This document shows, piece after piece, positions 1 to 57,900 of a stretch of 64,000 nucleotides of DNA. The translations under genes were made by a program, and so were the position numbers. The DNA comes from Chiloscyllium plagiosum (Eukaryota). The notes beneath the pieces are model-generated. The model saw only the letters and a list, made by a program, of their open reading frames with translations. It did no database searches and was not told the DNA's origin. The stretch lies in contig NC_057719.1 in assembly GCF_004010195.1 (NCBI RefSeq), positions 57,637 through 121,636 on the forward strand, read 5' to 3'. How positions within the stretch are numbered: position 1 is the stretch's first letter; each line of letters opens with the position of its first letter.

Positions 1-240
1 GCCTATCACCCTCACCTTAACCTCCTTCCACCTATCACATTTCCAATGCCCCTCCCCCAAGTCCCTCCTCCCTACCTTTTATCTTAGCCTGCTGGACACA
101 CTTTCCTCATTCCTGAAGAAGGGCTCATGCCCGAAACGTTGATTCTCCTGCTCTTTGGATGCTGCCTGACCTGCTGCGCTTTTCCAGCAACACATTTTCA
201 GCTCTGATCTCCAGCATCTGCAGTCCTCACTTTCTCCTCC
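1..240 (+). mobile_element. Penelope-like element family A, 3' terminus (pLTR) with hammerhead motif at 109-144
   Basis: Closely matches the termini of RT/GIY-YIG-coding copies at 33291-33669 and 54220-54371. Confidence 0.85.
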
Positions 241-413
241 ACAGAGCATAGATGGTTAGTTTAAGGCAGGTGGGGGAGAAAATGCACATCAGTAACTTCT
301 ACTGCCTGCCGAAGTATCTGAGTCCAGCCACCACCTTCAACAGAAATGTTAACTACCTGTGACTGCATGTATACAAGTGTTAATACTTCAGATCTGCAGT
401 AATGGAAAACAAT

Positions 414-727
414 TTAGATTAGATAGATTACTTACAGTGTGGAAACAGACCCTTCAGCCCAACAAGTCCACACCAATCCTCCAAAGAGCAACCCACCCAG
501 ACCTATTCCCCTACATTTACCCCTTCGCCTAACACTAGGGGCAATTTAGCATGGCCAATTCACCTAACCTGCACATTTTTGCAGTGTGGGAGGAAATCAG
601 AGCACCGGAGGAAACCCATGCAGACACAGGGAGAATGTGCCAACTCCACACAGACTGGAGTTGCCTGAGGTGGGAATTGAACCCGGGTCTCTGGCGCTGT
701 GAGGCAGTAGTGCTAACCCGTGTGCTG
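414..727 (-). mobile_element. HE1-like tRNA-derived SINE
   Basis: B box GGTTCAATTCC, (TCTAA)n tail, CR1-like 3' end; matches copies at 18714 and 42732. Confidence 0.85.
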
Positions 728-918
728 CAAGAAGAATGATAACAACAATTGAAACTGACAATGATTTTGTAATGTTTTCTGAAAACAAACAATGCTATTC
801 AAACAGAGACTCCATACTTGAACTATTGTACCACAAAATGTATAAAATATCCTGACGTGCTCAGAGAGTGAGAGGGGGCTCACAGCTGACAGCAGTGCTG
901 ACGAACATCTCTCTTCAA

Positions 919-1703
919 AGTTTGTGCGAAGATTTGTAGCTCGGGTGCTCGTTGTTGTGGTTCTGTTCGCCGAGCTGGAAGTTTTTGTTGCAAACGTTTC
1001 GTCCCCTGGCTAGGCGACATCATCAGTGCTTGGGAGCCTCCTGCGAAGCGCTTCTTTGATGTTTCCTCCGGTGTTTATAGTGGTCTGTCCCTGCCGCTTC
1101 CGGTTGTCAGTTTCAGCTGTCCGCTGTAGTTGTTGGTATATTGGGTCCAGGTCGATGTGTTGTCATCATCAGAAATATACACATAGACAAAGAAGAAACC
1201 ATGATATCTTTCGACGTGATGGCACTGTTCACTTCGATTGACAAAACCCTAGCCAGAGAAACAATAGCCAACCTACTGGACATACAGAACAGAAAACAGG
1301 ACGCTGAACCTATCAACAAAGACAGCATACTTAAACTACTGGACTTGTGCCTCACAACACACTTCACATTCAACAACCACATTTACGAACAAATCAACGG
1401 AACACCCATGGGATCACCAACCTCCGGACTCATAGCAGAGGCAGTTAGAACAAACAGTCCTACCACAAACTCAACCCAAACTCTGGGTCAGATATGTCGA
1501 TGACACGTTTGTAATCATTAAAAACACGGAAATAGAAAAAACACACCGGATCATCAACGCCACACTCACAGGAATCCGATTCACGAGAGAAGAAGAAAAG
1601 GATAGCCAACTCCCATTCCTAGACGTGATGGTACAGAGAACACCAGACGGAGAATTCACTACAAGGGTATACAGGAAAGACACACACACAGACCAAGTCC
1701 TAA
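919..1703 (+). mobile_element. Penelope-like element family B: inverted 3' terminus (919-1160, -) joined to a forward RT fragment (1161-1703, +), cut by a gap
   Basis: RT motifs ISFDVMALFTSI, QINGTPMGSP, YVDD, LPFLDV, VYRKDTHTD; hammerhead motif at 990-1029 (-). Confidence 0.85.
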
Positions 1704-2267
1704 NNNNNNNNNNNNNNNNNNNNNNNNNNNNNNNNNNNNNNNNNNNNNNNNNNNNNNNNNNNNNNNNNNNNNNNNNNNNNNNNNNNNNNNNNNNNNNNNN
1801 NNNNNNNNNNNNNNNNNNNNNNNNNNNNNNNNNNNNNNNNNNNNNNNNNNNNNNNNNNNNNNNNNNNNNNNNNNNNNNNNNNNNNNNNNNNNNNNNNNNN
1901 NNNNNNNNNNNNNNNNNNNNNNNNNNNNNNNNNNNNNNNNNNNNNNNNNNNNNNNNNNNNNNNNNNNNNNNNNNNNNNNNAACAAATGGAGCAGAGGCTG
2001 CAGAGAGGACAGTCTCCGTAAAATGGAATGAGGGAATCACTATCAGATCAGCCGTGGTCTTAGCGAATGGTGGGGCAGGATTGTGTGGACCACGAATGCA
2101 ACTTATTCAGAATTTGATGTAACAAACCATTTCAGCTGAGCTGACAATGCTTTATTCAATGTTATCATTCCTGTGATTTTACTCACAAAGATCTCACTTC
2201 TCCAGTTAGTCCCACTGCCCTGTCTTTTTCCCCATATTTCCACAACATCTTTTCAGTTAATTAACTG

Positions 2268-2363
2268 TTCGCAGGAGGCTCCCAAGCACTGATGATGTCG
2301 CCTAGCCAGGGGACGAAACGTTTGCAACAAAAACTTCCAGCTCGGTGAACAGAACCACAAGAA
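2268..2363 (+). mobile_element. Penelope family B terminal fragment with hammerhead motif (2286-2325)
   Basis: Near-exact reverse complement of ~955-1045. Confidence 0.8.
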
Positions 2364-2909
2364 CATCTCTCTCTCCCCGGAGCTCCGATTTCTTTGTACA
2401 ATAAACTCTGACTCTGAGACTGGTGATCTTCTCCACAACAGTTACATAGTATAGAAATAGGTTATTTGACCCATCATGTCTATGCCAACCAACAAACACC
2501 AAACAAACTAGTTCCATTTACCTATACTGGTTCACAGCCTGTTATGTCCAGATGTTTCTTAAACATTGAGAGTACCTGCCTACATCAGCCTCTTAAGGCA
2601 GCACATTCCATATTTCCACCATTCTCAAGGTGAAAACAGAACTTTTCAGATCTCCTCTGAAGCACTTACATCTCATCTTAAACTTATGCTGTCAGGTCTT
2701 AGACATGTCTGCCACGGGGAAGAGATTCTTACAATCTACTATCTGTACCTCTCAGAATTTTGTATATCTCAGTCAGATCCCCCTCACCTACTCTGCTTGA
2801 AGGAAAACAAAACTTAAGTCTGTGCAGTCTCTCCTTAAAACAGTCTTTTCATCCCAGGCAACATCCTGGTGAATCTCCTCTGCACCTCTCCAGTGCTATA
2901 TGTCTTCCT

Positions 2910-3870
2910 TCTAGGTGAAAGTGATCATGGGATTGGAAAGTGCTGTCTAAGGTGCCTTGGTAAATTTCTGAAGTGTACCTTGCAGATACTATATGTTGCT
3001 GCCACTGAGTATTGGTGGTAGAGGGAGTGGATATTTGTGGATGTGGTGCCAATGAAGCAGCTACTTTGTCCTGGAGGGTGTCAAGCTTCTTGAGTGTTTT
3101 GGGAAATGCACCCATCCAGGCAAGTGGGGAGTATTCCATCACATTCCTGACTTGTTTCTTGTAGATAGTGAACAAGCTTTAGGGAGTCAGGAGGGGAGGT
3201 ACTCACTACATTCCTGGCCCCTGACTTGTTTTTTGTAGCCCACTATTTATGTGGTGAGTTCAGTTCAGTTTCTGGTTAATGATAACCTCAAGGATGTTGA
3301 TAATAAGATGCTAGTGGGACTACTTTAGTTTGGGATTCTGGTCAACATGGATTGGTTAGACCAAAATGTCTGTTTTTGTGCTATAGGACTCTGAGTCTGA
3401 GTAGAGGATTCAGTGATGGTAATCTCATTGAATGTCAAGGGGCAGTGGTTAGATTGTCTCTTATTGGAGATCATCATTGCCTGCCATTTGTCTGACTTGC
3501 CACTTTTCAGTTTAAACTGGATTTTGTCCAGGTCTTGTTGTATTTGAACATGGACTGCATCAGTATCTGATTAGTAGCAAATGATGCTGAACGTTGTGTA
3601 GTCATTGGTGAACATCTCCACTTCTGATGGAGGGAAAATCATTGAAGCAGCTGAAGATGGTTTGGCGTAGGACACTATCCCTGAGGAACTCCTGCAGAGA
3701 TGTCCTGGAGCTGAGATGACTGACCTCCAACAACTACAACCATCTTCCAATATGTCAGGTATGACTCCAATTGGTGGAAAGTTTTCCCACTGATTGTAGT
3801 CTTGCTAGGTCTCCTTGATGTCACACTGGGTCAAATGTGGCCTTGCTGTTAAGGGCAGTCACTCTCACCT
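2910..3870 (-). mobile_element. CR1-group LINE, second family, RT fragment
   Basis: Translation YKKQVRNVMEYSPLAWMGA...LKKLDTLQDK; related pieces at 12160-12270, 16540-16730, 41110-41575. Confidence 0.7.
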
Positions 3871-15900: not shown

Positions 15901-18900
15901 CCCTTTCCATCCATTGTGTTTTTTTATTCATTCAGGGGATGATCGCTTCACTGGCTAGGCCAGCATTTATTGCCCATTCCAGCAGGAAGCTAAAAGTCAA
16001 AAGTCAACAACATTGCTGTGGGTCTGGAGTCACATGTAGGCCAGACTGGGTAGGGATGGCAGATTCCTTCCTTAAAGGACATTAGTGACCCAGATGGGTT
16101 TTTTCAAACAATCGACAATGGATTCATGGTCATCATTAGACTCTTAATTCCAATTTTTTTTTAAAAATTGAATTCAAATTCCACCATTTGCCGTGGGTCT
16201 CTGGTTTAACAGATAATACCACTAGGCCATAGCCCCACCATATAATTAGCTGTGAATCATACAGCTTCAAACAGTTCATAAAAAGAACTGGAGATTATTC
16301 AATTGCCTTCAAAATTTACATTACTTCATATACAGGGTCACCTTCCCTAATTGAATACCATTTCCCTGTTTTCTTGTTCCAAAGAACGCAATGGTATGTG
16401 TTAACGAAGCAGCTTACTCTAGATGATGTCATGCTTCATAAATACTATTGGAGCTGCACCTATGTTGTCAAGGGGATAGCGACGCTCACTGACCTGTATG
16501 CGCCTCAGAGGCCCACATAGCTGTTAAGAGAATGAGAGGAAACACTGGTGGGGAGTACTCCATCACACTCCTGACTGTATCTTATAGATGGTGGTCATGA
16601 GGTGACCACTCGCCACAGAATTCCCAGCCTCTGACCTGCTTTCATAGCCACAGTACTTATATGGATATTCCTGTTCAATTTCTGGTGATTAGTAACCCCT
16701 GGGCTATTGATATTGGGGGATTACATTGGAGTTTGAATCCATTCCTTACACGGTTAGTGACTGCTTCAGCGTCATTGGGTGTAAATTAAAAACAGGCAAC
16801 ATTGACCACCTCAGGAGATAGTCAGTTCTCTGGACCTGAAAATAAGGAACCATGATTCCCTGTACTACGTGAGTCAGCTGTTCAGCATCATTGGTATTGC
16901 CAACACTCACCTAATTGCACCAAGGAATGCATGGGTCCCACACCGCCGAGAATACCGGGCAGCTGATTTTTCTTGATGTCAGTCAGCCACTCATTCAATG
17001 CATAGGAGATGAGCTTGTCCACTCCCAGCAATCTGCAGAACAAACCAGACAGGTTCAGTGATGGATATGACTGGGTGGGTCGAGAGTGTGGTGCTGGAAA
17101 AGCACAGCAGGTCAGGCAGCATCCGAGGAGCAGGAGAATCAACGTTTTGGGCCGGAGCCCTTCATCAGGACTAAGGCTGGGAGCTTTGAGGGTGGAAAGA
17201 TAAATGAGAGAGGGGTGGGGCCGGGGAGAAGGTTGCTAAGAGTGCAATAGGTGGATGGAAGTGGGGGTGAAGGTGATGGGTCGGAGAGGAGGGTGGAGTG
17301 GATAGGTGGGAAGGAAGATTGACAGGTGGGATAGGTCACGAGGATGGTGCTGAGCTGGAAGGTTGGAACTGGGGTAAGGTGGGGGAAGGGGAAATGAGGA
17401 AACTGGTGAAGTCCACATTGACGCCCTGGGGTTGAAGGGTCCTGAAGTGGATGATGGGGCATTCTTCCTCCAGGCGTCGGGTAGTGAGGGAGTGGTGATG
17501 GAGGAGGCACAGGACCTGCAGATCCTCAGCAAAGTGGGGAGGGGGGAGTTTAAATGTTCGGCCACGGGGCAGTGGAGTTGATTGGTGCGGGTGTCCTGGA
17601 GGTGTTCTCTAAAACGCTCTGCAAGAAGGTGTCCATTCTTCCCACTGCAGAGGAGATCACATCGGGGCGCAGGTTTTGCAATTCCTGTGGTGGTAGGGGA
17701 GTGTGACTTGTTAGGGGCGTGGACCTGACCAGGTAGTCACAGAGGGAACATCTTTGTGGAAAGCGGATAGGGGTGGGGAGGGAAATATATCTCTGGTGAT
17801 AGGGTCCATTTGTAGGTGGTGAAAATGTTAGCAGATGATACGATTAATGCGGAGGTTGGTGGGGTGGAAGGTGAGGACCGGGGGAATTCTGTCCTTGTTG
17901 CGGTTGGAGGGGTGGGGTTCGAGGGCAGAGATGCGGGACATGGATGAGATGTGTTGGAGGGCATCTTCAACCACGTGGGAGGGGAAATTTCAGTCTTTAA
18001 AGAAAGAGGCCATCTGGTGTGTTCTGTGGTGAAACTGGTCCTCCTGGGAGTAGATGCGACAGAGGCGGAGGAATTGGGAATATGGGATAACATTTTTGTA
18101 GGAGGTAGGGTAGGAGGTAGGTAATCCAGGTAGCTGAAGGAGTCGGTGGATTTGTATAAAATGTCAGTGTTGAGTCAGTCCTCATGGATGGAGATGGAGA
18201 GGTCTAGGAAGGGAATGGAGGTGTCAGAGATAGTCCAGGTGAATTTAAGGTTAGGTTGGAACGTGTTTGTGAAATTGTGGGAGCACGAGGTGGCGCCGAT
18301 GCAGTCATCAATGTAGCGGAGGAAGAGGTGGGAATGGTGCTGATGTAACTCTGGAAAATGGACTGTTCTATGTAACCGACAAAGAGACAGGCATAGCTGG
18401 GGCCCATCTCTAGCCCCAAAAGGAAAAGGAAGGATTAATGAATTCCAAATTCCAGTTGGAAGCTTGAGTTGGGAATCACGCAGGTTGAAGACAGTTGATG
18501 GAGGCTGTGCTGTGTTGGTCAACCTAAAAGGTGATGTTGGGGCTTCTTGACCCTACAATTTCCACCATTGCATAGATGACTGACTAATACCACAATGCAA
18601 AAACGTCCTCAAGAAGCACATTAGACGCACAAAGGTACCCATAAAGAGTCACTACCATCTCCTCCACATCGCAAAGATCCACAAAAAAGGGAGTTAGAGG
18701 GTTTTGTTCTTTATTAGATTAGATTACTTTACAGTGTGGAAACAGGCCCTTCGGGCCAACAAGTCCACACCGACCTGCTGAAGCGTAACCCACCCATACC
18801 CCTACATTTACCCCTTACCTAACACTACGGGCAATTTAGCATGGCCAATTCACCTGACCTGCACATCTTTGGACTGTGGGAGGAAACCGGAGCACCCGGA

Positions 18901-30900: not shown

Positions 30901-33900
30901 TCAGCTATGATTACATTGAATGGTGGAGTAGGCTTGAGGAACAGAATGGCCTATTCCTACTCCTGTCTATACTTCAGTGTTAAAAGTTTCAAAGAATCAG
31001 AGAAAAGCTGATTAAATGGAGTTGATCTCATTGTAGAACACAGTAGGTTTGAGGAACTGAATGAATTTCCTTTTATTCTAAGTGCTATTATGTCCTCAGA
31101 AATGTCTCAACAAGTACTCGATTCTGGGCTGTTCTTCACACCAGTTCTGGAGGTCCACTGATCATTTATGCAATGCAGGTATCCTCTTTTAAAATTCTGG
31201 TTGAGGGGGTACAAGCCCTTCAGGGACTGACTCCCCTCCCGTCAAATCTCTGGTTAAAGCTGGAATATATTCCACATAGTTAGATATTTCTGCACCTTCA
31301 CTCACAGTTACTTTGTTCATCCATGAGTGACCGAAGGATCTCAGAGTGGAGAGTGTGGTGTTGGAAAAGCACAGCAGGCCAGTCAGCATCCGAGGAGCAG
31401 GAGAATTGACTTTTCGGGCAAGAGCCCTTCATCAGGAATGAGGCTGGGAGCCAAGGGGGTGGAGAGATAAATGGCAGGAGGGTGGGGATGGGGAAACTCA
31501 TCTCCATATACCTTGATACTGTTCTATTCCTCCCTCCCCGGTCCAGGAGCTCCCCACATACATTCGGGACACCACCCACACCCTCCACCTCCTCTAAGAC
31601 TTTTGTTTCCACAGCCCCCAACACCTCATCTTCATCATGAACAAGCAGTCTCTATACACCTCTATCCACCATGACGATGGCCTCTAAGCACTCAAGTTTC
31701 TTCCTCTCCCGACATCCCCACCAGCACCCCTCCACTGATACTCTCATTCATTTGGCTGAACTGGTCTTTACCCTCAATAATTTCTCCTTTGAATCTTCCC
31801 ATTTCCTCCAGACGAAAGGTGTAGCCATGGGCACCCGCATGGGCTCCAGCTATGCCTGTCTCTTTGTCGGTTATGTAGAACAGTCCATCGTCCACAGTCA
31901 CACCAACACCATTCCCCACCTCTTTGACTGTATCGGCATCACCTTGTGCTCCCACGGGGAGGTTGAACAGTTCATCAAATTCACCAACATATTCCACCCC
32001 AACCTTAAGTTCATCTGGACCATCTCAGATGCCTCTCCCCCCTTCTGGGACCTCTCCCTCTCCATCAACGGTGACCGACTCAACACGGACATCTTCTACA
32101 AACCCACCAACTCCCACAGCTACCTAGACTACACCTCCTCCCACCCTGCCTCCTGTAAAAATGCTATCCCTTAATCCCAATTCCTCCACCTCATCTGGTC
32201 CCAGGAGGACCGTTCCACCTCAGAACAAACCAAATGGCCTCCATCTTTAAAGACCACAATTTCCCCTCCCACGTGGTCGATGATGCCCTCCAGCACATCG
32301 CATTCACTTCCCGCACCTCTGCCCTCGAAACCCCACTCCTCGAAATGCAACAAGGACAGAATCCCCCCTTGATCCTCATCTTCCACTCCACCAACCTCCG
32401 TACACATCACATCATTCTCCACCATTTCCGCCACCGACAAATGGACCCCGATTTCCCTCCCACCCCTATCCGCTTTCCATAAAGACCGCTCCCTCCACGA
32501 CTCTGTCAGGTCCACACTGCCCACCAACCCTCCATCCCCACCCGGTACCTTCCACTGCCTCGGCAGGAATTGCAAAACCTGCGCCCACACCTCCCCCCTC
32601 ACCTCCGACCAAGGCCCCAAAGGAGACTTCCACATCCAGCAGAGTTTTATCTGCACTTCCACGTGTCACTTGCATATCTGTTGCTCCCGATGCGGTCTCA
32701 TCTACATTGGGGAGACAGGCAGAGTGCTTCAGAGAACATCTCCGGGACACCTGCATCAACCAACCGCACTGCCCCGTGGCTGAACACTTCAACTCTCCCT
32801 CCCACTCCACCAAAGACATGCAGGTCCTAGGCCTCCTCCATTGCCACACTCTAACCACCCGACATCTGGAGGAAAAACGCCTCATCTTCCGCTTTGGGAC
32901 TCCCCTACCTCATAGAACATAGAACATTACAGCACAGTATAGGCCCTTCGGCCCTCGATGTTGCACCTCCCTGTCATACTAATCTGAAGCCCATCTCTGC
33001 ACCCTTTCCAAAGCTTCCACATCCTTCTTATAATGCGGTGACCAGAACTGTACATAATCCTCCAAGTGTGGCCGTGCCAGAGCTTTGTACAGCTGCAGCA
33101 TAACCTCCTGGTTCCGTAACTTAATCCCTCTATTAATAAAGGCCAAAACACTGTATGCCTTCTTAACAACTCTGTCAATGTGGGTGGCAACTTTCAGGGA
33201 TCTGTGTACATGGACACTGAGATCTCTCTGCTCATCTGCACTCCCAAGAATCTTACCATTAGCCCAGTACTTTGCATTCTGATTCCTCATGGCATCAATG
33301 GGGATTTCATCAGATTCCTCATTTCCCCTCCCCTCCACCTTATCCCACTTCCAACCTTGCAATGTGGCACTACCCTCTTGACCTGTCCATCTTCCATCCC
33401 ACCTATCCGCTACACCCACCTCTCTCACCTATCACCATTACCCCCACCTCCATCCACCTATCGCACTCTCAGCTAACTTGCCCCCCACTTCACCCCCCCT
33501 TCCCATTTATCTCTCCAATCCCTCGGCTCACAAGCCTCATTCCTGATGAAAGGCTCTTGCCCGAAATGTCGAGTATCCTGCTCCTCGGATGCTGCCTGAC
33601 CTGCTGTGCTTTGTTAGCACCACACTTTCGGCTCTGATCTCCAGCATCTGCAGTCCTCAATTTCTCCTCAAGGATATCAGAATCAACTTTGCTCCTGCTC
33701 ACACCTCACTGGGTTTACTGTCTGCTAGTCAGGCAGCATTAAAATCAATTCTACAACATTAAATGCTGGCTAGCCAGCAATGACCATATTCCATAAATAA
33801 TAAATAAAAAAAACAATTGCTGTCTTGTTTGTGATTTGCGAACAGAATGCAGATCTAATACCAGAACCCATTTCATCCCAAAATGAGCAGAAATAGCAAG

Positions 33901-39900: not shown

Positions 39901-42900
39901 ACGCTCGTGAATGAGGTCATCGTAGATCCCTAAAGGTCGAGAAAGACCAATTAAACTCATCATTCTTGTGTTACTTTGAAAGGTAACAGAAAAGGTCAAA
40001 AGAAGATGGTTGATCTTTGTTTCAAATGATCATGTTTAAAACAGTAAAACAAGATATGATATATTTTTAACAAAGTTTGGCACAGTTATGTGAGGAGATA
40101 GGAGGATAGGTAACTATCCGTGAGGCCAGTTTTAAGAGGTGAGAGGTAGAGGGGCTTAGGAAGAAAATTGCAGAGCAAGGACAGGTGACTGCACACTTAG
40201 CTACTTGAGGATATACAACAGATCAGAATTGGAGGAACAGAGAGATTTCAAGAGTTTGCAGGTTGGAAGATGTTATAACGAGACCAGGTGAAAGAAGTAG
40301 GCTATAAGGAGCATCATAAAAGATATCAGTTTACAGCTGACTAAACTCAGCGCCTCTTCCTGTTTAATGGTTAGCACTTGCAGCTTTTCATTTGACCCTT
40401 CTGCCTTCTCCACTCACCATTTGAGTGCTGTGAGGCTTGAGTAGTAGGAGGCGAAGACGGTGCGATATCCATCTCTTCCATCGCATCGATCATCAGGTCC
40501 CGTAAGAGCTTTTGCTCGGCTTCAGCAAGGCCGGAGGTTCGGCAGGGAGCACTGTCACCTGAACCAGCCTGAGTAGGAGACATTGCTACGGTTAATCCAT
40601 CAGGCACCAGAATGACAAAGGTTTACTGAGGTCAACGTGAAATGGGGCAAGTGTGGTTTACAGTTGAGGGATGAGGGCAGTGAAAGAGAACAAGTGACTG
40701 TGGATTTGAGGTTCCCAAACCTTGGCCTGACTGGAGGTTTCCGCCTCTTGTGTCTGGATCTGTTATATACTTGATCACTGTAATTAATCAATAACTCTGT
40801 TATCATTCTATCATGGTTCTATGGCTATACACACACGCACAAACTGGACCTGCTCACTGACACCCAGTTTGAACTAGGTCACAGTCACTCAGCTCCTGAC
40901 TCCTTTGTTTAAAAGAGCTGAATTCCAGAAATGAGGTGAAAGAGGCAGTCTTTGACAACAAGGTTGCTTTTGGCCAAGTGTGGCACCAAAAGTTCTGAGC
41001 AAAATATTGGTTCTCCTGCTCCTCAGATGCTGCCTGACCTGCTGTGCTTTTCCATCACCCCACTCTCAACTCTGATCTCCAGCATCTGCAGTCCTCACTT
41101 TCTGCTAGAGTCAGAGGGAGTCAGGGAAAACTCTCCTCTGGTTGGATATCACTCATCTGACGTCCAGGATACCCTGCAGGAGTTCCTTAGAGTAATGCCA
41201 AAAGTGGAGATTTTCACTGATGACTGCAGTCAACATTCACTCCCTCTACCACCAACACTCAGTAGCAGCAGTGTGTACCATCTACAAGATGCACTGTAGA
41301 AATTCACCAAGGTACCTTAGACAGCACCTTCCAAACTCATGACTGCTTCCACCAAGAAGGACAAGGGCGGCTGATACATGGGAACACTACCAGTTGCAGG
41401 TTTCCCTCCAAGTCACGCATCATCCTGATTTGGAAGTATATCACTGCTCCTTCATTGATGCTTGGTCAAAATGCTGGAACTCCCTCCCTAATAGCACTGG
41501 GGACCTACACCAGTGTCACAGTTCAAGAAGGCAGCTCACCACCATCTTCTCAAGGGCAACCAGGAATGGGCAATACAAAACCAAAACAAATTCTAATTTA
41601 TCAAAGCAGGTTTCAGCCTGGGACCTGACTTGTCCATCATAACAATATCAGCTAGATTCCTGTGAATAAGCCAGCTTTCTCAAAATCTTGAAGAGGGATG
41701 GGCAATTCATCCTGGCATAGCCAGCAATGCCAAACCCCATGACAGCATTGAAAATAAATTATTGTAAATATATTTTGATTACCCTGCTTCTCTGAGCTGC
41801 TGTTCCTGCAGCGGCCTGGAATTTGCAAGGTGGATGTAGGTCGCCGTAACTCGCCACATACTGGATGAGATTCATAAGGGCAGCACAAGAATCAGAACAC
41901 GTCCGGATATGGATGACGTCACTTGCGCATCGAAGCTCAAACCGGGGCTGAAATTGACAAAGCGGTAAAGTTCATTGGAGAACCCAATAAGTATGAACAA
42001 TCTGACACAGTAACAACCAAAATGCCTAAAGTCTCCCTCACCCTCTCTGCTTCTGCAGTCTGCTTTGATGCAGTTATTTGGAATTCCAGTAACCCCATGT
42101 CCAGGACACGCACGTAATCTGGAATAAATAATTTGGACTGACTGAACCTGGTGAACAGATTTTGTCTTTCATAGTAACATATTGACAGTCAGCCAATAAA
42201 AAGCTGCAAAAGTCAACAAAAATCTAACAGCAACCAAGTTCCCTGTGGTCTTCACGACTATTCAGGTTATATGTTAATGATATAGACGAAGGAACTGAGA
42301 TCACTGTTGCTAAATTTACAGATGGCACAAAAATAGATGGACGGACAGAAAGTACTGAGGAAATGGGGAGGCTGCAGAAGGACTTGTACATGCTAGGAGA
42401 GTGGGCAAAGAAGTTGCAGATAGAACACAATCTGGCAAAGTGTGAGGTTATGCACTTTGATAGAAAGAATAGAGGCACAGACTATTTTCTGAATTGGGAA
42501 AAGCTTGGAAATCTGAAGCACAGAGACATCTGGGGGTTCTAATTCAGGATTCTCTTAAGGTTAACATGCAGGTTCAATTGGCAGCTAGGAAGGCAAATCA
42601 ATGTTAGCATTCATTTCAAGAGGGCTAGAATACAAGAGCAGAGATGTACTGCTGAGGCTGAATAAGGCTATGGTCCAACCACATTTGGAATACTGAGAGC
42701 AGTTTTGGGCCCTGTATCTAAGGTAGAACGTGGGTGGCACAGTGGTTAGCACTGCTGCCTCACAGCGCCAGAGACCCGGGTTCAATTCCCGCCTCAGGCG
42801 ACTGACTGTGTGGAGTTTGCACGTTGTCTGCGTGGGTTTCCTCTGGGTGCTCCAGTTTCCTCCCACAGTCCAAAGATGTGCAGGGCCAGGTGAATTGGCT

Positions 42901-45900
42901 ATACTAAATTGCCCATAGTGTTAGGTAAGGGGTAAATGTAGGGGTATGGGTGGGTTTCGCTTCGGCGGGTCAGTGTGGACTTGTTGGGCCGAAGGGCCTG
43001 TTTCCACACTGTAATGTAATCTAATCTAAACTTGCTGGTGTTGAGGGGGTCTAGAGGACGTTTACAAGAATGATCCTGGGGATGAAGGGCTTGTTATATG
43101 AGGAGCAACTGAGGACTCTCGAGTTTAGAAGGATGAGGGGAGATCTCATTTAAATGTATAGAATATTGAGAGGCCTGGATAGAGTGGAAGTGGAGAAGAT
43201 GTTTCTACTCGCAGGAGATACTAGAACATGAGGGCAGAGCCTCAGAGTGAAGGGAAGACCCTTTAGAACTGAAATAAGGAGAAATTTCACCTGTGGAATG
43301 CATTGCCGCAGAGGGCTGTTGAGGACAAGTCATTGACTGTATACAAGACAGAATTAGATAGGTTCTTGATTGGTGAGGGAATTACATGTTACATGGAGAA
43401 GGCAGAAGAATAGATTTGAGAAACATATCAGCCATAATCGAATCGTGGAGTAGACTGGATGGGCCAAATGGCCTGATTATGCTCTGATATGTTATGGTCT
43501 TACGGTGTCCTGAGAAAATGGATTCTCACTGGGGAACAGGTCCCCCTCCTCTCTGAAGAACCCTTCCCTTTAATATCTTACATAACTGAACATATCCCCT
43601 TTAAAGCTAGATATAATTGCAATCTCACCTTTCTTTAAATTTACTGCAGATAGATGACATTTTTCAGACAAGTACAATGCAGCATCATCAATAATAATTC
43701 TGGAAAATGCAAGAGAGTTTATTACAAATAGATAATTTGCAGAAAGAGAAAGTGGTTATGTAATCTTGAAGGAGTCAGTCATTACCTGAGAGTGGAGCAA
43801 TACTTGTCCAGAACAATGTTACTGGATATTGTAAAGGTTTCAACAGTGACTAGTGCTCTAACTGGTAAATATTGTGGCCTGAAAAACAGACAGAAGCATA
43901 CACATTTTAGGTGTTAACAACATCAGCTACTCCAATTCATTCTTTCTCTGGTCTTCAAAACAGTGGAACGTATCAACCATTCATTCTCCTTTCATAACCT
44001 TCAAACTCCCGCATGACATCAACTACCTTATTTTCTTTCCTACCCTTTCAGCTTCAGCCGTGTCCATCGTTTGAAACTTCAGCTGATCAATTCCAAAAGA
44101 ACAACCACCTGAAATTCTGAGTACAAAAGTGATCCAGCTCCAGGCCTTACTCTTGGGACAGGGAACCTGATAAGCCTTTGCTGAGGCAGAGCTGAAAATG
44201 TGTTGCTGGAAAAGCGCAGCAGGTCAGGCAGCATCCAGGGAACAGGAGAATCGACGTTTCGGGCATAAGCCCTTCTTCAGGAAGGGCTTATTCAGGTTGC
44301 TGAGGCAGCCTCTTCAGAGGTATAACTGGCTAAAACTGACATCACTCTTTCTTACCAGATTTTCCTACTCAGTACAAATGGTTACCAGGATACACCCTCA
44401 AGTGCAATCAATGATGATGGAATTAATGGACATGCAGCAGTTTTACTGAGGATTGTGCAGCAACTTACAGGAACCCTAACCCTAATGACCTGCTGTGCTG
44501 TTCCAGCAATAAAGTTTCAACTTTGATCTCCTGCATCTGCAGACCTCACTTTCTCCTAACTAGTGTCACACATGTTTGCCAGTGCATTACAAAGAGAGCT
44601 TTATTCAGTATCTAATCCAATGTTGTACCTACCCAGAGAGTGTTTAATGGGGACAGTGTAAAGGGAGCTTTACTCTGTAGTCTAACCACGTGCTGTCCCT
44701 ATCTCTGTGAAGGGGTTGATGGAGGCAGTACAAAGTTTTATGCTGTATTACTTCAGCAAGGCATTTGATAAGGGTCCTCATGGTAGGCTCATTCATAAAG
44801 TCAGGAAGTATGGGATACAGGGAGATTTAGCTGTCTGGATTCAGAATTGGCTGGCTGACAGAAGGCAGAGAGCGGTTGTAGATGGAAAGTATACTGCCTG
44901 GAGGACAGTGTTGAGTGGGGTCCTTCAGATCTCTGTTCTTGGGCCTCTGCTCTTTGTAGTTTTTATAAATGACTTAAATGAGGAGGTTGAGGGGTGGGTT
45001 AGTAAATCTGCCGGTGACACAAAAGTTGGAGTTGATAGTATTGAGGGCTATTGCAGGCTGCAGCACGACATAGACAAGATGCAGAGCTAGGCTGAGAAAT
45101 GGCAGATGGAGTTCAACCTGGATAAATGTGAAGTGAAGTATTTTGGAAGGTTGAATCTGAATGCTGAATATAGGATTAAAGACAGGATTCTTGGCAGTGT
45201 GGAGGAACAGAGGGATCTTGGTGTTCAAGTGCATAGATCCCTCAAAGTTGCCACCCAAGTGGATAGGGTTGTTAAGAAAGCACATGGTGTTTTGGTTTTC
45301 ATTAACAGGGGGATTGAGTTTAAGAGCCGCAAGGTTTTGCTGCAGCTCTACAAGACCCTGGTGAGACCACACATGGAATATTGTATCCACTTCTGGTCAC
45401 TACGTAATAGGAAAGATACAGATGCTTTGGAGAGGGTGCAAAGAAGGTTTACCAGGATGTTGCCTGGAGTGGAGGGCTTGCCTTACGAAGTGAGGTTGAC
45501 TAAAGCTCAGAATTTTCTCTCTGGAGAGAAGAAGGAGGAAGACAGGTGACCTGATCGAGGTACACAAGGTAATGAGAGGCATGGATAGAGTCAATAGCCA
45601 GAGACTTTTCCCCAGGACAGGATTGACTGGCACATGGGGTCACAGTTTTAAGATATTAGGAGGAAGGTATAGAGGAGACGTCACGGGTAGGTTCTTTACG
45701 CAGAGAGTTGTGAATGCATGGAATGAGTTACCAGCAGTGGTGGTGAAAGAGAGTCATTCGGGACATTTAAGCGACTGCTGGACATGCACATGGAAAGCAG
45801 TGAATTGAGGGGTGCATAGGTTAGGTTATTTTATTTTAGATTAGTAATAATCCTTGGCATAACATTGTGGGCAGAATAAATGATATTGTATCCATTGCTC

Positions 45901-48900
45901 CTGATGCGGTCTCCTCTACATTGGGGAGACTGGACGCCTCCTAGCAGAGCGCTTTAGGGGACATCTCCGGGACACCGGCACCAATCAACCACACCGCCCT
46001 CTGGCCCAACATTTCAACTCCCCCTCCCACTCTGCCGAGGACATGGAGGTCCTGGGCCTCCTTCACCACCGCTCCCTCACCACCAGACGCCTGGAGGAAG
46101 AACGCCTCATCTTCCTCCTCGGAACACTTCAACTCCTTCATCCCCTCCCCCACTCACCTATTGTACTCTATGCTACTTTCTCCCCACCCCCACCCTCTTC
46201 TCACTTATCTCTCCACCCTTCAGGCTCTCTGCCTTTATTCCTGATGAAGGGCTTTTGCCCGAAACGTCGATTTTTTTGCTCCTCGGATGCTGCCTGAACT
46301 GTTGTGCTCTTCCAGCACCACTATTCCAGAATCTGGTTTCCAGCATCTGCAGTCATTGTTTTTACCTGTAATTTTCTATGTTCTATTTAACCCCACGCTG
46401 TGTCTTATCCTGGAGTGTTTGATGTAATAATGTGAAGGCTTTATTCTGCATTAAATCTTGTTGTATATCCCCTAATTGATGTATTCAACAGAATAAATGG
46501 TGAGAAACCTTGTCCTTAGAAGTTGTTTACCTGTAGTCCAGGGCACAACTCCAGAGATGCAGGTGAAAGGTAGTTTCATTTGCTGGATGAGCATAACCCA
46601 AAACTGGTTCATCAGCAATATTCAGAAAATCCACAAACTGTAGGGAGGGAGGAAGACAGCAATGAATCCAACAACATTAACAGGTTCTGAAGCCAATATA
46701 AATCTAGCATGGTCACAAGGTTAAATTAACAACACAATGTCAAGTTTACATGCAGCTCCTTCTCAAATACAACTGAACGATTTAATCAGATCAGAACTAG
46801 CTGGGTTCATGAACCAAAGGAACATCCTCATTGTAAAGTGTTGACAAATACAGCATCAGTACGAGGTTATTTTCTTTCTGGTATTCTGAGTTCCTGTTGC
46901 TGATGCTTCCTTCTGGCCAAGTGCTGAGTAAAAGCCAGCTGCAAGTTGGCAGACGCTAATTCTATACTTGCTTAGAGTGTCAGAGTAGCACTGGCAGAAA
47001 CAGGATACTTGCACTTCCTTCTGTGTTTTGACAAATCTGGGAAATACTGGGACATCAATACTCTTCCAAAATAAGAGGTCCTAGCGAGAGATTTTTTACA
47101 ACATGTGAAGCTAGTGAAATAGATAGCAGAAATACATTCAAATTTGCCCTACAGAGCTATCATGTAATATTTGAAAACTCTAAGGGACAGGAGGATAGTG
47201 TGGGAAAAAGGCGTCAAGGCAAAGATCAGCCATGATCCACCCGAATGACAAAGGAGGAATATAGAGTATAAGAACAAGGAGGTGATGTTGAACTCGTGTA
47301 AGACAATTGTTAGACCTCAGCTGGAGTACTGTGTACAGTGGGCACCATTATTGGAAGGATTTCAATGAATCGCAGAGGGTGCAGAGTGATTTACAAGAAT
47401 GGTTTCAGAAATGAGAAATCTTAGTGCTGAAGAATGCGGGACTGTTCTCCTGGGAAAGGAGGAGATTTGATTAAGTTTTCAAAATCATGAAAGNNNNNNN
47501 NNNNNNNNNNNNNNNNNNNNNNNNNNNNNNNNNNNNNNNNNNNNNNNNNNNNNNNNNNNNNNNNNNNNNNNNNNNNNNNNNNNNNNNNNNNNNNNNNNNN
47601 NNNNNNNNNNNNNNNNNNNNNNNNNNNNNNNNNNNNNNNNNNNNNNNNNNNNNNNNNNNNNNNNNNNNNNNNNNNNNNNNNNNNNNNNNNNNNNNNNNNN
47701 NNNNNNNNNNNNNNNNNNNNNNNNNNNNNNNNNNNNNNNNNNNNNNNNNNNNNNNNNNNNNNNNNNNNNNNNNNNNNNNNNNNNNNNNNNNNNNNNNNNN
47801 NNNNNNNNNNNNNNNNNNNNNNNNNNNNNNNNNNNNNNNNNNNNNNNNNNNNNNNNNNNNNNNNNNNNNNNNNNNNNNNNNNNNNNNNNNNNNNNNNNNN
47901 NNNNNNNNNNNNNNNNNNNNNNNNNNNNNNNNNNNNNNNNNNNNNNNNNNNNNNNNNNNNNNNNNNNNNNNNNNNNNNNNNNNNNNNNNNNNNATCTGTG
48001 TGTTACCAGGCAGCCTTCAGCCCTCCCAGAGATGACTGATGTGAAGCTAACCTGCTCATACCAACTCTGCCCTGGAGGCACATTGCGATGCTGGAGGGTG
48101 GCCCCACGCAACCCGACAGCCACCAGGATCTCCTGAAACAAGAGGGAGAGGAAAATACATCAATGTCAACTGAAAACTGCCCACTTTGATGTTTACCCTC
48201 TTCTCCTTGAACAGTCTGCATTAATATGGTTTTTTTAATGCCGTGAAATATCGCAAGACACTACACAGTAGCGCCAACAAACAAAAATTACCATAAAAGT
48301 TACCTTCATGTTGCTCTCATTTCTGTTGTGATGTACTTTCACTGCGATGGAGAGCATGTTTGGACTTTCTACACCAACTCCCACTGGTGCAGCAGCCTGC
48401 TTGGTCAGAGCACCCTCCTCAGACTTGTAGATGGTAGGTTCAACCCAAGGAGGCAGAGACTTGCTGGGGAGCTTTATATCACCAGGGGCACATACATCCT
48501 CAACTACTCCTGCAATGGACCAGAGGATAGGATGGGAAAAAAAACAGAACTAGACTGTCAGAGTCATACACACCCTTCGGTCCAACTCATCTTTGCAGAT
48601 CAGAACCCCAATCTGACCTACTCCCATTTGCCAGCACTTGGCCCATATCTCTCTAAACAATTCGTATTCATATCCCCATCTAGGTGCCTTTTAAATATTG
48701 TAATTGGACCTGCCCCCACCCCTTCCTCAGAGACAAAAACAACCCTGCAAATGTTAGAATCCAAAGTAGACAAGCAGGAGGCTGGAAGAACATAGCAAGG
48801 CAAGCAGCATCAGGAGGTGGAGAAAGCAACACCTTGTGCTGCCTGGCTTGTCCACTCCATCCATTCCTCTGGTAGCTCACTCGTTACACCCATCACCCTC

Positions 48901-51900: not shown

Positions 51901-54900
51901 TGCTCTGAACTGGAACTACACCTCAGGTTCCCATCCCCCTGCTGAGCTAGTTTAAACCCACCCGAATAGCATCAGCAAATTTCCCACCCAGGATATTAGT
52001 ATCCCTCTGGTTCAAGTGAAGACCGTATTGTTAGTAGGGGTCCAACATTCTCCAGAATTAAGCCCAATTATCCATATATCTGAAACCTTCCCTCCTGCAC
52101 CATTCCTGCAGCCACGTGTTCAGCTGATATCTCTCCCTGTTCTTCGCCTCACTTTACGTGGCACGAGTAACAATCCAGAGATAACAACTCTGTTTGTTCT
52201 TGGTCTCAGCTTCCATCCTAGCTCCCTGAAATCCTGACTTACATCCCTGCCCCTCTTTCTACCTATGTCGTTGGTCACTATGTCCTGTACAGCCGCAGCA
52301 TGACAATCCAAACTGGGAGAAAGTGAGGACTGCAGATGCTGGAGATTAGAGGCGAGAGTTTTCCAGCACCGCACTCTTAACTATGACATCCCAACTCCTG
52401 TGCACAATGTTCTGAACAATGAAGACAAGCGTGCCAAACGTCTTCTTCACTACCCTGTCTACCTGTGCCTCCATTTTCACAGAACTGTGAACCTGTAACC
52501 ACTAGGTCTGTTTGTTCGGCAACACTCTCGAGGGCCCTCCCATTAATTCCTGCCCTGGTGTGCCTTACCAAAATGCAATATCTCACATTTATCTAAATTA
52601 AACTCCACCTGCCACTCCTCAGCCCAATGGCCCCTCTGATCATTGTACTCCGAGATAACCTTCTTCACTGTCGACTACACCACTAATTTTGAAGTCATCT
52701 GCAAACTTACTAACTAAACCTCCTATGTTTACATCTGAACACCACAACAAACAGCATGCACAGGTAACTTTTCCAGGTCCCTTCATTTTCACACAACTTT
52801 ATGTTGGAATGTCACAAATCAATTCCATAATCAACATTTTCTTACATTGAAATGAGCAGTCATTCCTTTTTAGAAATGGCACCAAGGTAAGCAGTTGAAG
52901 TTGTTAAGATGAGTTCATTGGGGAAGAATACCCCATAGGAGAAAATGAGGACTGCAGATGCTGGAGATCAGAGCTTAAAAATGTGTTGCTGGAAAAGTGC
53001 AGCAGGTCAGGCAGCATCAAAGGAACAGGAGAATCGACGTTTCGGGCATAAGCCCTTCTTCAGGAATGAGGAGGGTGTGCCAAGCAGGCTAAGATAAAAG
53101 GTAGGAAGGAGGGACTTGGGGGAGGGGCGTTGGGAATNNNNNNNNNNNNNNNNNNNNNNNNNNNNNNNNNGGGTGGTAGGGGGGGCGGAGAGGTCGGGAA
53201 GAAGATTGCAGGACAAGAAGGTGGTGCTGAGTCTGAGGGTTGGGACTGAGAAAAGGTCGGGGGAGGGGAAATGAGAAAGCTGGAGAAATCTGCATTCATC
53301 CCTTGTGGTTGGAGGGTTCCTAGGCAGAAGATGAGGCGCTCTTCCTCCAGGCGCGTGTTGCCATGGTCTGGCGATGGAGGAGTCCAAGGACCTGCATGTC
53401 CTTGGTGGGGTGGGAGGAGGAGTTTAAAGTGTTGAGCCACAGGGCGGTTGGGTTGGTTGGTCTGGGTGTCCCAGAGGTGTTCTCTGGAACGTTCCGCAAG
53501 TAGGCGGCCTGTCTCCCCAATGTATAGGGGGCCACATCGGTGCAGCGGATGCAGTAAGTGATGTGTGTGGAGGTGCAATGAATTTCTGACAGATATGGAA
53601 GGATCCCTTGGAGCCTTGGATGGAAGTTAGGGGGGAGGTGTGGGCGCAAGTTTTGCATTTCATGCGGTTGCAGGGGAAGGTGCCGGGAGTGGAGGTTGGG
53701 TTGGTGGGGGGTGTGGACGTGACGAGGGAGTCGCGGAGGGAGTGGTCTTTCTGGAACACTGATAGGGGTGGGGAGGGAAATGTATCCTTGGTGGTGGGGT
53801 CTGTTTGGAGGTGGCGGAAATGACGAAGGCCCCAAGGGATCCTTCCATATCCGTCAGAAATTCACCTGCACCTCCACACACATCATTTACTGCATCCGCG
53901 GCACCCGATGTGGCCTCCTATACATTGCGGAGACAGGCCGCCTACTTGTGGAATGTTTCAGAGAACACCTCTGGGACACCCGCACCAACCAACCCAACTG
54001 CCCCTTGGCAGAACACTTTAACTCCCCCTCCCACTCCGCCAAGGACAACACGACATCTCATCTTCCGCCTAGGAACCCTCCAGCCACAGGGGATGAATGC
54101 GGATTTCTCCAGCTTCCTCATTTCCCCTCCCCCCACCTTTTCTCAGTCCCAGCCCTCAGACTCAGCACCGCCTTCTTGACCTGCAATCTTCTTCCCAACC
54201 TCTCTGCCCCCACCCCCTCTCCGGCCTATCACCTCACCTTAATCTCCTTCCATCTATCGTATTCCCAACGCTCCTCCCCCAAGTCCCTCCTCCATACCTT
54301 TTATCTTAGCCTGCTTGGCACACCCTCCTCATTCCTGAAGAAGGGCTTTTGCCCGAAACGTCGATTCTCCTGAAGAATACCCCATGTCAAGGAGTTCTGG
54401 ATAGATGAACAAGGAGTTGACATCGACTGAGCGTTGCAGATTAGCACATTCTATGGTCCAGGACTATATGCTGAGGGATGCACTAAAGCTTGGGCAGCTG
54501 CTGCCAAGTTGCAGTGGGGAAAGACCAGTGTCTGAGGTTTGTCTGCTGAGGTTAAAAGGGGTTTGTTCAGTCATCAGACACTCCTAGTGGCTGAAATGCA
54601 TGTAAATATTGTTTTGTATGTGTAAGAGATGTCTTTAGTTTCTTTGAATAGAGTCAAACTCCAATGTTTGTTTGCTTCCTTGATATATATTGTACAGAAC
54701 TGAACTACATTTGTGATTATATATAATAAAGATATCTTTTATGAATAAAGTATATTTTTGAAACCTGGTCAGTGCTACATTAGCTAGGATTCTAGATGGA
54801 GACTGTCTAAGCTCACCTATTGTGAAAGGAGAAAAGGAGAAATGTGCTTACTAGGATGAAGATTTATGATATATTGTTATAATTTCGAAACTTTGGTTCT

Positions 54901-57900
54901 AAAGTGCAAGAACAGTATATGGGTTTAAGTTTGATTTGTATTTTTATGGTATTCATATTAAAATATTGTTGTGGTTCTGTTCGCCAAGCTGGGTATTTGT
55001 GTTGCAGACGTTTCGTCCCCTGTCTAGGTGACATCCTCAGTGCTTGGCCTCCTGTGAAACGCTTCTGTGATCTTTCCTCCAGCATTTGTAGTGGTTTGAA
55101 TCTGCCGCTTCCGGTTGTCAGTCCGAGCTGTCCGCTGCAGTGGTCGGTATATTGGGTCCAGGTCGATGTGCTTATTGATTGAATATGTGGATGAGTGCCA
55201 TGCCTCTAGGAATTCCCTGGCTGTTTTTTGGCTTGTCCTATAATAGTAGTGTTGTCCCAATTGAATTCATGTTGCTTGTCATCTGTGTGTGGCTACTAAG
55301 GGTAGCTGGTCATGTCGTTTCGTGGCTAGTTGGTGTTCATGGATGCGGATCATTAGCTGTCTTGCTGTTTGTCCTATGTAGTGTTTTGTGCAGTCCTTGC
55401 ATGGGATTTTGTACACTACATTGGTTGTATGTACACCAGCTTGTCTGAAGATTTGTTTACATGCATTTAATTAGGATCTTTAAAATCCTTGAGCTGAATA
55501 ACTCAGTCCACTAGAAAGTAATGTAGAAGAGAAAAGACGACTGCAGTTGTTTACCGATAGGAGTCCAGTATCCAAAACCATCCACAAGGTCAGCCACTGT
55601 GACATACATTTAAGGAACCTATGTTAAACACTATATGAGCAGTGTTAACAATTTAAGAATCTCAAAATAGAAATTTGATAAAACAAAACCCAGAAATTAG
55701 CCAAAAAGAAATTGATTTAGTTCTGCCAACTGAACAATGAGCTTTAAAGTGGATATAGTGTGACTCTTTACTGAGATTTAAGAATCTGTAAAGTTGTCAA
55801 GGGTAAAAGGTTTGCTTTTTTTTCCTGCTGTTTTGCAACAAGTCTGTTTCAATTCTTTTTCAGATACAAAAACTTTTTTTGTACAATAAATGTTTCTACT
55901 ATTTTGTTAAACGTACATGGATAGTGTTATGTGATTTTAGTATCTTGTATTTTTAGTATCACTTATTTTAGGTTTTGATTTTCAAATTAGAGATATGTTT
56001 TATTCTGTGCTTGAAGAGTTTAATGATTAACTTCTAAGTATTGAAGTACTGTAACCATGGTAAGTTATTTTAAAACAGCTGGAGGGCATCAGCTTCAAGA
56101 ATAATAGGGTTTTGTGCAGACTGGGAGAATTTTATGACCAAAGAAGGTAAACAAGCTCTGGAAGGTCAGGAATTATTTATTTTAAGATAAGCGGAAGTAT
56201 CCACAGCTAGGGAAAGATTTTTTAAATTTTCAAGTCAGGCCAGTTCTACAGACGTTTTTGAATAAAGATGGAGTATAAAACAGTGCTTCAGAAAAAGGAA
56301 GGAGACAGAACAAAGTTAGGGGTTTACGAATACTGCCATGCCAGAAGAGTTTGGATAAAATCCTGAAGAGGTTATTTGAAGCTGAGAACATTTTACTGTC
56401 AAGTGTATAACAACTCCAGGAAAACGTTGTTTGATTTTCCAGGCTGGAGGTTGAAGTCACAGTCAAATTAAGCCAATTGATGTCACAGAAAGAGATTCTG
56501 TTTTCTAAGTATTTTACAAGGATGCTTTTGAGTACTGAACAACATATTTTTGAGATCTAAAAAGGAGGTTTCTTTGGGATTAATGGGAGTATATATTATC
56601 TTGTGTTTCAAGTTTTTTGAAGTTTGTTTTGTAAGTAAATGGTTTATTGGTTTTTTGTTCTTTGTTTATTTTGATTAATTAAAAACTAAACTGACAGCAT
56701 TTTGTGCTTAGGTTTCAGTGTAAGATCATTCGATAAAACCATACCAAACTAAATTATGATCTATTAAGTCAGTTTTCAGTCTCACTTAGAGTCATAAAGA
56801 TGTGCACTTGTCCAGTAACATTATCAGCTGGGATCATAACACACATTACTCCGGTAACAGACTGCATTTTCAGGATAGGAAGAACCTGTTTCCCAAAGAA
56901 AGTCAGCTCAGCACCTTCAGTTTAAGAGTGGAATACCAATACCAATCTTCCTTCCATTGACTCTGTCTACAGTTCCCACTGTCTTGGGAAAGCAGCCAAT
57001 ATAATCAAAGACCCTTCCCACCTTAGTTATATTCTCTTCCACCTTCTTCCATTAAACAAAAGATACAAAAGTTTGAAAACACTAAAGATTTAAGAACAGC
57101 TTCTTCCCCATTACAATCAGACTTATGAATGGACCTCTGACATATTAGAGTTGATCTTTCTCTGCGCCTTCTCTGTAGCTATAACACTACATTCTGTTCT
57201 GTTACCATGATATACTTATGCAAGGTATGATTTGTCTAATTAGCACACAAAACAATACTTTTCACTGTATCTGGTACATGTGACAACAGCAAATCAAAAT
57301 CAATACCCAGTCAGAGTCAGCACCTTCAGAAGAGGAGGGGACCTGTATCCCAGAGACAGTCAGCACTTTCATGAAATGAGAATGTAAATTGGCTGGGAAG
57401 ATGAAAAAGCTTGCATAAGCTTTTAGTATGCTTTCCTTTATTAGTCAGAGTATTGAGTACAGGGGTTGGGAGGTCATGTTGGGGCTAAACAGGACATTGG
57501 TTAGGCCACTTTTGGAATATTGTGTGTAAATCTGGTCTGCTTTCTATCGGAAGGATGTTTTGAAACTTGAAAGGGTTCAGAAAAAATTTACAAGGATGCT
57601 GCCACAGTTGGAGAATTTGAGCTATAGGGAGAGGTGAATAGGCTGGGGCTGTTTTCCTTGGAGTGTCGGAGGCTGAGGGTTGACTTATAGAGGTTTATAA
57701 AATCATGAGGGACATGGATAGGATAATAGACAAAGTCTCTTCCCTGGGGTGGGGGAGTCCAGAACTAGAGGGCAAAGACTTGGGGTGAGAGGGGAAAGAT
57801 ATAAAAGAGAGCAGAGGTGCAACTTTTTCCCACAGAGGGTGGTACAGGTATGGAATGAGCTGTTTAGAGGAAGTGGTGGAGGCTGGTACGATTGCAACAT

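Follow-up and report, generated by a model that had tools for sequence, protein, structure and literature searches.

The genome of the shark Chiloscyllium plagiosum was inspected in a stretch of 64,000 nucleotides (contig NC_057719.1, positions 57,637 to 121,636; hereafter the window), in which an earlier reading, here called the original prediction, had noticed a dozen hammerhead-ribozyme motifs and had ascribed them to the ends of Penelope-like retroelements (PLE). All 12 motif stretches are present in the sequence at the coordinates and on the strands given. We are highly confident that they represent minimal type I hammerhead folds located in the pseudo-long terminal repeats (pseudo-LTRs) of Neptune-type (family A) and Poseidon-type (family B) PLE. 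In the genome the fold is found uncut, and most family A copies begin with its first base.

Hammerhead motifs and their carriers in the window

The motifs were compared with a strict descriptor of the minimal type I hammerhead, which demands the core, a stem II of at least 3 bp, the A15.1-U16.1 pair plus a 15.2-16.2 pair, and a stem I of at least 2 bp. Eight of the 12 motifs fit this descriptor (C3 positions in Table 1), whereas 200 dinucleotide shuffles of the window gave 0.065 matches on average and never more than two. The remaining four had rightly been labelled as mutated or partial: the motif at 17137 carries G12>A, that at 31404 C15.2>A and that at 33539 both G10.1>A and C15.2>T, while the motif at 28191 lacks the 5' half of the core. 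In the intact motifs, as well as in the family consensus lines described below, the core elements CUGANGA, GAAA and NUH follow each other in type I order. An extra base, A in family A and U in family B, stands between A9 and G10.1, accompanied by a G10.1-C11.1 pair. Stem III is palindromic (ACGU in families A and B, AGCU in family C) with a loop III of length zero and therefore cannot form inside a single motif. The predicted GUC cleavage triplet is found in five of the intact motifs, but those starting at 109, 990 and 2286 have GUU instead. Decayed remnants of family A and of three other hammerhead families had been overlooked (Table 1).

The proposed pseudo-LTR context is borne out by RT (reverse transcriptase) and GIY-YIG endonuclease (EN) matches, by inverted pairs with target-site duplications and by an optional tail. 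In total, three inverted pairs and one short copy in the window are flanked by target duplications of 12–14 bases. Family A hammerheads sit downstream of RT and GIY-YIG fragments. As Pfam scored none of the short PLE fragments of the window (the only match among 10 was an unrelated RT frame at 21178-21966), longer copies from elsewhere in the genome were used. P0001, a longer natural family A copy (locus L197) to which the window pieces match, gave PF00078 (RVT_1, E = 2.8e-6) and PF01541 (GIY-YIG, E = 6.5e-4), with both scores below the Pfam curated cut-offs. A CX4CxxC linker is present in P0001 and in the window frame 53424-53861, and a CX2-5CxxC linker before the endonuclease is described as a mark of Neptune/Nematis (PMC8557442). 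On the strength of this linker, and since Neptune and Poseidon are the PLE clades reported from vertebrates, family A can be provisionally named Neptune. The nearest named protein relatives of P0001 belong to Chiloscyllium punctatum (91%), Rhincodon and Mobula, consistent with the shark host that had been suspected from the letters.

Family B likewise encodes RT plus GIY-YIG, and the linker is absent in locus L203. At locus L206, two same-strand hammerheads 2,503 bases apart form a direct pseudo-LTR pair, and a frame of 549 residues opens at the ATG that is formed by A9, the extra U and G10.1 of the hammerhead itself. A TATAAA-like word lies about 50 bases upstream of the family B core (loci L051-L080). 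The 3' ends of 204 family A copies, scored in the genome sample introduced below, form two peaks 35–37 bases apart, corresponding to the known PLE tail. At 46282-46352 (+) and 154-222 (+), the conserved block that follows the hammerhead pairs with this tail in a predicted stem, and in family B a similar predicted stem encloses an AC-rich loop holding the first 3' end; this stem is possibly a start signal for the RT.

Table 1. Positions of PLE copies, their hammerheads and flanking target duplications in the window, counted from its first base
Feature	Position	Strand	Details
Family A (Neptune-type) 3' end	1..239	+	pyrimidine-rich 3' untranslated region (UTR), hammerhead, tail; adjoins an assembly gap directly upstream of the window
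Family A minimal hammerhead	109..144	+	C3 113, position 17 at 140, GUU
Family B (Poseidon-type) insertion	913..2364	both	ends facing outward; gap inside
Insertion 913..2364, left part	913-1162	-	EN end, hammerhead, tail
Insertion 913..2364, RT fragment	1165-1702	+	followed by gap and non-PLE stretch
Insertion 913..2364, right end		+	hammerhead 2286..2325, without tail
Target duplication of 913..2364	901-914 and 2359-2372		1 mismatch
Family B hammerhead	990..1029	-	C3 1026, position 17 at 993, GUU; ATG at A9-U-G10.1
Family B hammerhead	2286..2325	+	C3 2289, position 17 at 2322, GUU
Family C hammerhead remnant	9250-9322	+
Family E-like hammerhead remnant	15240-15313	+
Family A copy	17081..18419	-	broken RT and EN, 3' UTR, hammerhead 17137-17170
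Short family A copy	28131..28214	-	5' junction inside hammerhead, at stem II
Family A inverted pair	31341..33669	both	both hammerheads damaged
Pair 31341..33669, minus-strand end		-	damaged hammerhead 31404-31440
Pair 31341..33669, plus part		+	RT-EN fragment 31541-32805, damaged hammerhead 33539-33575, tail
Target duplication of 31341..33669	31334-31345 and 33670-33681		1 mismatch
Family A remnant	41000..41106	+	without 5' half of hammerhead; absent from the original prediction
Short family A copy	44187..44283	-	about 97 bases, begins in stem I, no tail
Hammerhead of 44187..44283		-	intact, C3 44280, position 17 at 44253
Target duplication of 44187..44283	44178-44189 and 44297-44308		12 bases
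Family A copy	45884..46370	+	GIY-YIG end, 3' UTR, hammerhead, tail
Hammerhead of 45884..46370	46237-46273	+	intact, C3 46241, predicted cut after 46268
Family G hammerhead remnant	48790-48825	-
Family A head-to-head inverted pair	52937..54372	both	joint near 53825
Hammerhead of 52937..54372	53031-53068	-	intact, C3 53063
Hammerhead of 52937..54372	54331-54368	+	intact, C3 54335
Target duplication of 52937..54372	52923-52936 and 54372-54385		14 bases
Family B copy	54963..55425	-	GIY-YIG region, no tail
Hammerhead of 54963..55425	55004-55043	-	C3 55040, position 17 at 55007, GUC
Family E hammerhead remnant	58630-58745	+

Inside the duplicated target of the first family B insertion, non-PLE sequence occupies 1981-2267 between the RT fragment and the right end; it represents either a nested insertion or captured DNA, partly hidden by the gap.

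Abundance, families and decay across the genome

The expectation of very many such hammerheads in the genome was confirmed. Exact matches to three patterns in the 3.56-Gb genome amount to 92,262 for family A, 12,971 for family B and 11,433 for family C (116,666 in total), and the reversed patterns used as controls gave 0 matches. On average, one exact family A core is encountered per 39 kb. Families and junctions were analyzed in 1.19 Mb of genome blocks chosen without regard to the motif, two of which fall in a motif-rich part of contig C1. In this sample, an anchor downstream of the hammerhead detected 255 sites; 204 of them extend into family A-like sequence, and 46 of these 204 copies retain an intact core and stem II.

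Majority lines built from the downstream anchors separated seven families (A–G), where at least two PLE lineages had been proposed. The families differ in the pairs of stem I: C-G/U-A in family A, A-U/C-G/G-C in B, C-G/A-U/C-G in C, A-U/C-G/C-G in D, U-A/U-A/G-C/A-U in E and U-A/C-G/G-C/A-U in F, while family G (8 copies) is decayed. The palindrome ACGU is replaced by AGCU in family C, and C3-G8 by U3-A8 in family F. All catalytic positions are nevertheless kept in the consensus lines while the stem I pairs differ. At the level of sequence, these compensatory changes between lineages are evidence of constraint on the fold. Family D stands behind a Poseidon-like endonuclease in several copies, and families C, E and G showed one or two Neptune-like matches each. 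Family F, represented by 7 copies in the 1.19 Mb, combines the U3-A8 core with a self-complementary stem I of 4 bp; one example lies on C1 near 3,027,900 (locus L034, minus strand).

At the level of single inserted copies, a comparison of core and flank mismatch revealed no selection. In 103 copies, mismatch was 3.5% at non-CpG core positions against 5.0% in the 3' flank (p = 0.10) and reached 24% at CpG core positions, and the catalytic G12, which lies within a CpG, was changed in 29 of 118 copies. Single inserted copies decay neutrally. The original prediction had named a core conserved no better than its flank among the findings that would refute it; among copies the core is indeed no better kept, but this refutes nothing because inserted copies are dead and constraint shows between lineages.

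Hammerheads in PLE ends have been known since 2014, and the motif list itself is therefore ordinary. Cervera and de la Pena (PMC4209133) described minimal hammerheads in PLE pseudo-LTRs together with their need for dimers and their occurrence in large numbers, and reviews have followed (PMC6765202, PMC6155905); the general structure of PLE is described in PMC8969392. The copies studied here share with the metazoan minimal hammerheads the core, the extra base between A9 and G10.1, the G10.1-C11.1 pair and the palindromic 15.2-16.2 region without a loop III, as well as mostly solitary copies, inverted pairs, several families per genome and the U3-A8 variant, which has been reported in Schistosoma (PMC4209133). 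They differ in number, with counts of about 4,000 in coelacanth and 9,000 in Xenopus (PMC4209133) versus more than 116,000 here, and in the stem I of family A, which is weaker than the 4–5 bp described. In the sections of that paper and the two supplement files covered, no shark is named, and 5' junctions are not mapped in the sections covered. About 120,000 hammerhead motifs, of the canonical kind, are reported for the axolotl (PMC7229834), Penelope is listed in the whale shark (PMC8455134), and a recent retrozyme survey includes one chondrichthyan genome (Li, Clavereau and Pollet 2026, 10.64898/2026.07.22.740005). Like non-LTR retrozymes, the copies are short, non-coding, PLE-derived units with a type I hammerhead, and some direct dimers and trimers of 200–500 bases occur in this genome. 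Unlike them, the window copies are solitary or inverted rather than tandem, and their hammerheads are minimal rather than canonical.

Where the copies begin

The 5' junctions of family A were mapped by extension upstream from the downstream anchor, whereby 12 of the 204 copies were dropped because they lie beside gaps. Of the resulting 192 junctions, 115 fall within 12 bases of C3; 20 are located exactly at A(-4), the A four bases before C3 that forms the first base of stem I, and only 2 at the cleavage site. Per base, the junction rate is 0.038 near C3, and the zones on either side have 0.006 and 0.009. Junctions spread as a shoulder over -9 to +9, and upstream of -12 the rate is back at 0.009 per base. 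Genome-wide, we counted junctions as four non-consensus bases before a 29-mer, a pattern that random flank passes 35% of the time: this gave 2,629 of 24,047 for A(-4) and 106 of 31,097 for the cleavage site, proportions that differ 32-fold. By our count, two microhomology classes account for 42 of the 100 cleavage-site rows listed, and ends at the cleavage site are not above what microhomology explains. As a count the junction result is strong, and the capped start proposed below is its putative mechanism.

The A at the peak lies in a YYANWYY word, the initiator consensus, and does so in subfamilies differing in their upstream sequence. A G precedes A(-4) in 1,120 of the 2,629 junctions (43%), whereas 27% would be expected and a control site has G in 14 of 60. 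Among the first 40 listed non-palindromic junctions, 18 carry unexplained extra bases, 13 of which end in G. Untemplated G has been ascribed to cap copying in L1 and SVA (PMC3287187). Family C shows the same pile-up, with 33 of 51 junctions between -14 and +15. In family B, 6 of 35 junctions were found 28–38 bases before the core, near a short palindrome.

Copies that reach the start of the open reading frame (ORF) behave alike. Thirty such family A loci were found, 13 of them with a core upstream, and by our reading 9 of these 13 begin within 12 bases of the core. Many of the ORF-start loci are internally deleted direct dimers, and here stem I opens the second unit as well. In runs of three related organisms, joints and loose ends were again seen at the same base. 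Internally deleted direct dimers or trimers of family A, retrozyme-like with units of about 210–320 bases, are present at L223:1100-1700, L231:1300-1900, L227:1200-1700 and L234:1300-1700, while the window contains no tandem units that each have a complete hammerhead. Two other origins of the A(-4) ends were considered and rejected: a splice acceptor, since the element has no AG there, and a hammerhead cut at this base, since stem III cannot pair there. Among the open-access papers reached by our searches, we found no report of a concentration of 5' junctions at stem I, nor of the run-off reading proposed below.

Template, cleavage and rival explanations

Stem I differs considerably in strength between families. 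In the main family A subfamilies it consists of 2 bp, a U.U mismatch and one A-U pair, while it comprises 4 bp in subfamily A3 and 3 bp in family B, where the pair probability is 0.76–0.95. A same-strand partner within 600 bases is present for only 2 of 127 cores, and nearly all inserted copies are therefore expected to be inert. As to the dimerisation through stem III raised in the original prediction, a partner for a dimer in cis is almost never nearby, and the pairs in the window are inverted. According to published in vitro work, minimal hammerheads cut poorly and only as dimers (PMC4209133). For the folds described here, weak cleavage is predicted, and then only in pairs assisted by protein.

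A close experimental parallel is PAc, the Poseidon element of Anolis carolinensis, whose hammerhead works only with protein and is not required for insertion (Frangieh et al. 2024, PMC11167929). Family B shares with PAc an ORF opening at the base of stem II, a tail marked off by two 3' ends, the first of them in an AC-rich loop, and, in RNA libraries ill suited to show such ends, a lack of RNA ends at the cleavage site. Family A, unlike PAc, is Neptune-type, has the ATG of its ORF 163 bases after the core and mostly begins at stem I. Penelope of Drosophila virilis has an internal promoter, and its transcripts start within the pseudo-LTR (Schostak et al. 2008, PMC2377424), as we infer for family A. 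The Penelope start is located about 120 bases upstream of the end of an intron that abuts helix I, whereas the putative family A start is the first base of helix I itself. A start site inside the pseudo-LTR is also known for the Chlamys element, and rotifer elements have initiator-like words and solo pseudo-LTRs (PMC3846280).

Our preferred explanation combines the identity of the motifs with an uncut capped template and with cleavage on a side pool of RNA, and we assign it as a whole a probability of roughly 60%. Transcription of family A would start at the first base of stem I, with the hammerhead as the 5' end of the RNA; the hammerhead probably makes up bases +1 to +36 of a capped transcript initiated at the initiator-like word. 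The RT of the element would start internally at one of two sites about 95 and 131 bases from the 5' end, the two boundaries of the tail, as PAc does in vitro, and would run off the uncleaved 5' end, thereby giving copies of 100–140 bases, head-to-head pairs and template jumps, while initiation in the downstream pseudo-LTR would lead to long copies. The odds are about even that such strong-stop-like run-off cDNAs integrate alone, pair head-to-head or jump and make up a family similar to short interspersed elements, with hundreds of thousands of uncut copies and without cut linear RNA as a PLE template. Unit-length RNA would carry a hammerhead at each end; these would pair through ACGU with the help of protein and then cut. 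The cut linear RNA would not serve as insertion template, and cleavage would act on a side pool, either by removing the cap or by allowing ligation to a circle. That cutting of paired end hammerheads on this side pool of element RNA is the actual role of the ribozyme is a tentative suggestion.

Several observations weigh against this explanation. A search with hammerhead models, recommended with the original prediction, failed to recover the motifs: none of the 10 window matches in Rfam 15 at E ≤ 10 is a hammerhead. The cleavage-site count is 1.8 times that of the control site three bases on (60 junctions, a count without its own denominator), compatible with a small cleaved fraction. Of the 24 Gs in the 40 junctions read singly, 10 can be traced to the target duplication or to the inverted partner, and the junction classifier is rough and mislabels some rows. 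Family B, in 35 core-selected copies, shows no pile-up at stem I. The pair probability of stem I is only 0.02–0.07 in the window copies of family A, and by nearest-neighbour energies the double-hammerhead conformer lies 8–14 kcal/mol above the dimer minimum, which together make it likely that cleavage needs protein, as for PAc. RNA reads of a related organism gave coverage on both strands with no pile-up of starts or ends, and none at the cleavage site, in libraries ill suited to show cleavage ends; they were counted neither for nor against expression or cleavage. A complete family A element was sought, but the long open frames turned out to be assembly gaps, and because of these gaps no complete element is readable in the assembly.

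The absence of cleavage-site ends would also be compatible with the rolling-circle route proposed in PMC4209133, in which hammerheads excise unit RNA, the ligated circle is the main template and the pile-up has another cause, since ligation restores an intact hammerhead. Some upstream pseudo-LTRs reach well 5' of the core (L215, L236), and the short direct dimers and trimers (L223, L231) would fit as well. A circle, however, has no end at A(-4), yet more than half of the copies stop there with an extra G, and most of the direct dimers have their joint at stem I or close to it and vary in their internal breakpoints, the pattern that template jumps would leave. We regard the circle as an improbable main template, although a ligated circle may be the template of the long copies. 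We judge no more favourably the idea that RT stalls, or meets a bound protein, at the upstream pyrimidine tract of a long uncut RNA, with G arising by terminal addition or microhomology. The breadth of the junction shoulder, which is not confined to one base, the C/T-rich tract upstream of the hammerhead, the many templated Gs and the lack of a start site in the RNA reads agree with a stall. Against it, the peak rests on the A of an initiator-like word across subfamilies with different upstream sequence, family C piles up alike without a pyrimidine-rich tract upstream, and junctions become rare again beyond -12.

It is even less probable, and in our view very unlikely, that the element retains the fold as a signal, for binding or as a promoter, with cleavage in family A being vestigial. 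Such a role would account for a stem I reduced to 2 bp and a U.U mismatch in the most successful subfamilies and for the overlap of the motif with the putative start site in family A and the start codon in family B, and PLE clades without hammerheads proliferate well (PMC8557442). But the U3-A8 and palindrome swaps make sense only for a hammerhead fold, whose catalytic positions are kept, and the PAc hammerhead does cut and is rescued by a C3G/G8C double change (PMC11167929).

Apart from PLE, the window contains fragments of another RT-bearing repeat (13492-14467, 20634-21969 and 44686-45549), one of which scores weakly for RVT_1; from its motifs, we take this repeat to be CR1-like. A tandem duplication of 143 bases is present at 14180-14467. 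The segment 21194-21280 contains a perfect inverted repeat of about 20 bp and gave weak matches to microRNA precursors in Rfam, far below the gathering scores.

The function of the ribozyme for PLE is still called unclear (PMC8557442). In this genome, the copy number is sufficient to read the ends of the template without any RNA data: hardly any ends attest to cut linear RNA, whereas many mark the likely start of the transcript, at the first base of the ribozyme. The junction result narrows the models to an uncut capped template versus a circle. The copies form a large, unannotated ribozyme-like repeat of a shark-like genome that goes undetected by Rfam. If our explanation is true, they would be a genome-scale record that hammerhead-cut linear RNA is not the insertion template of PLE.

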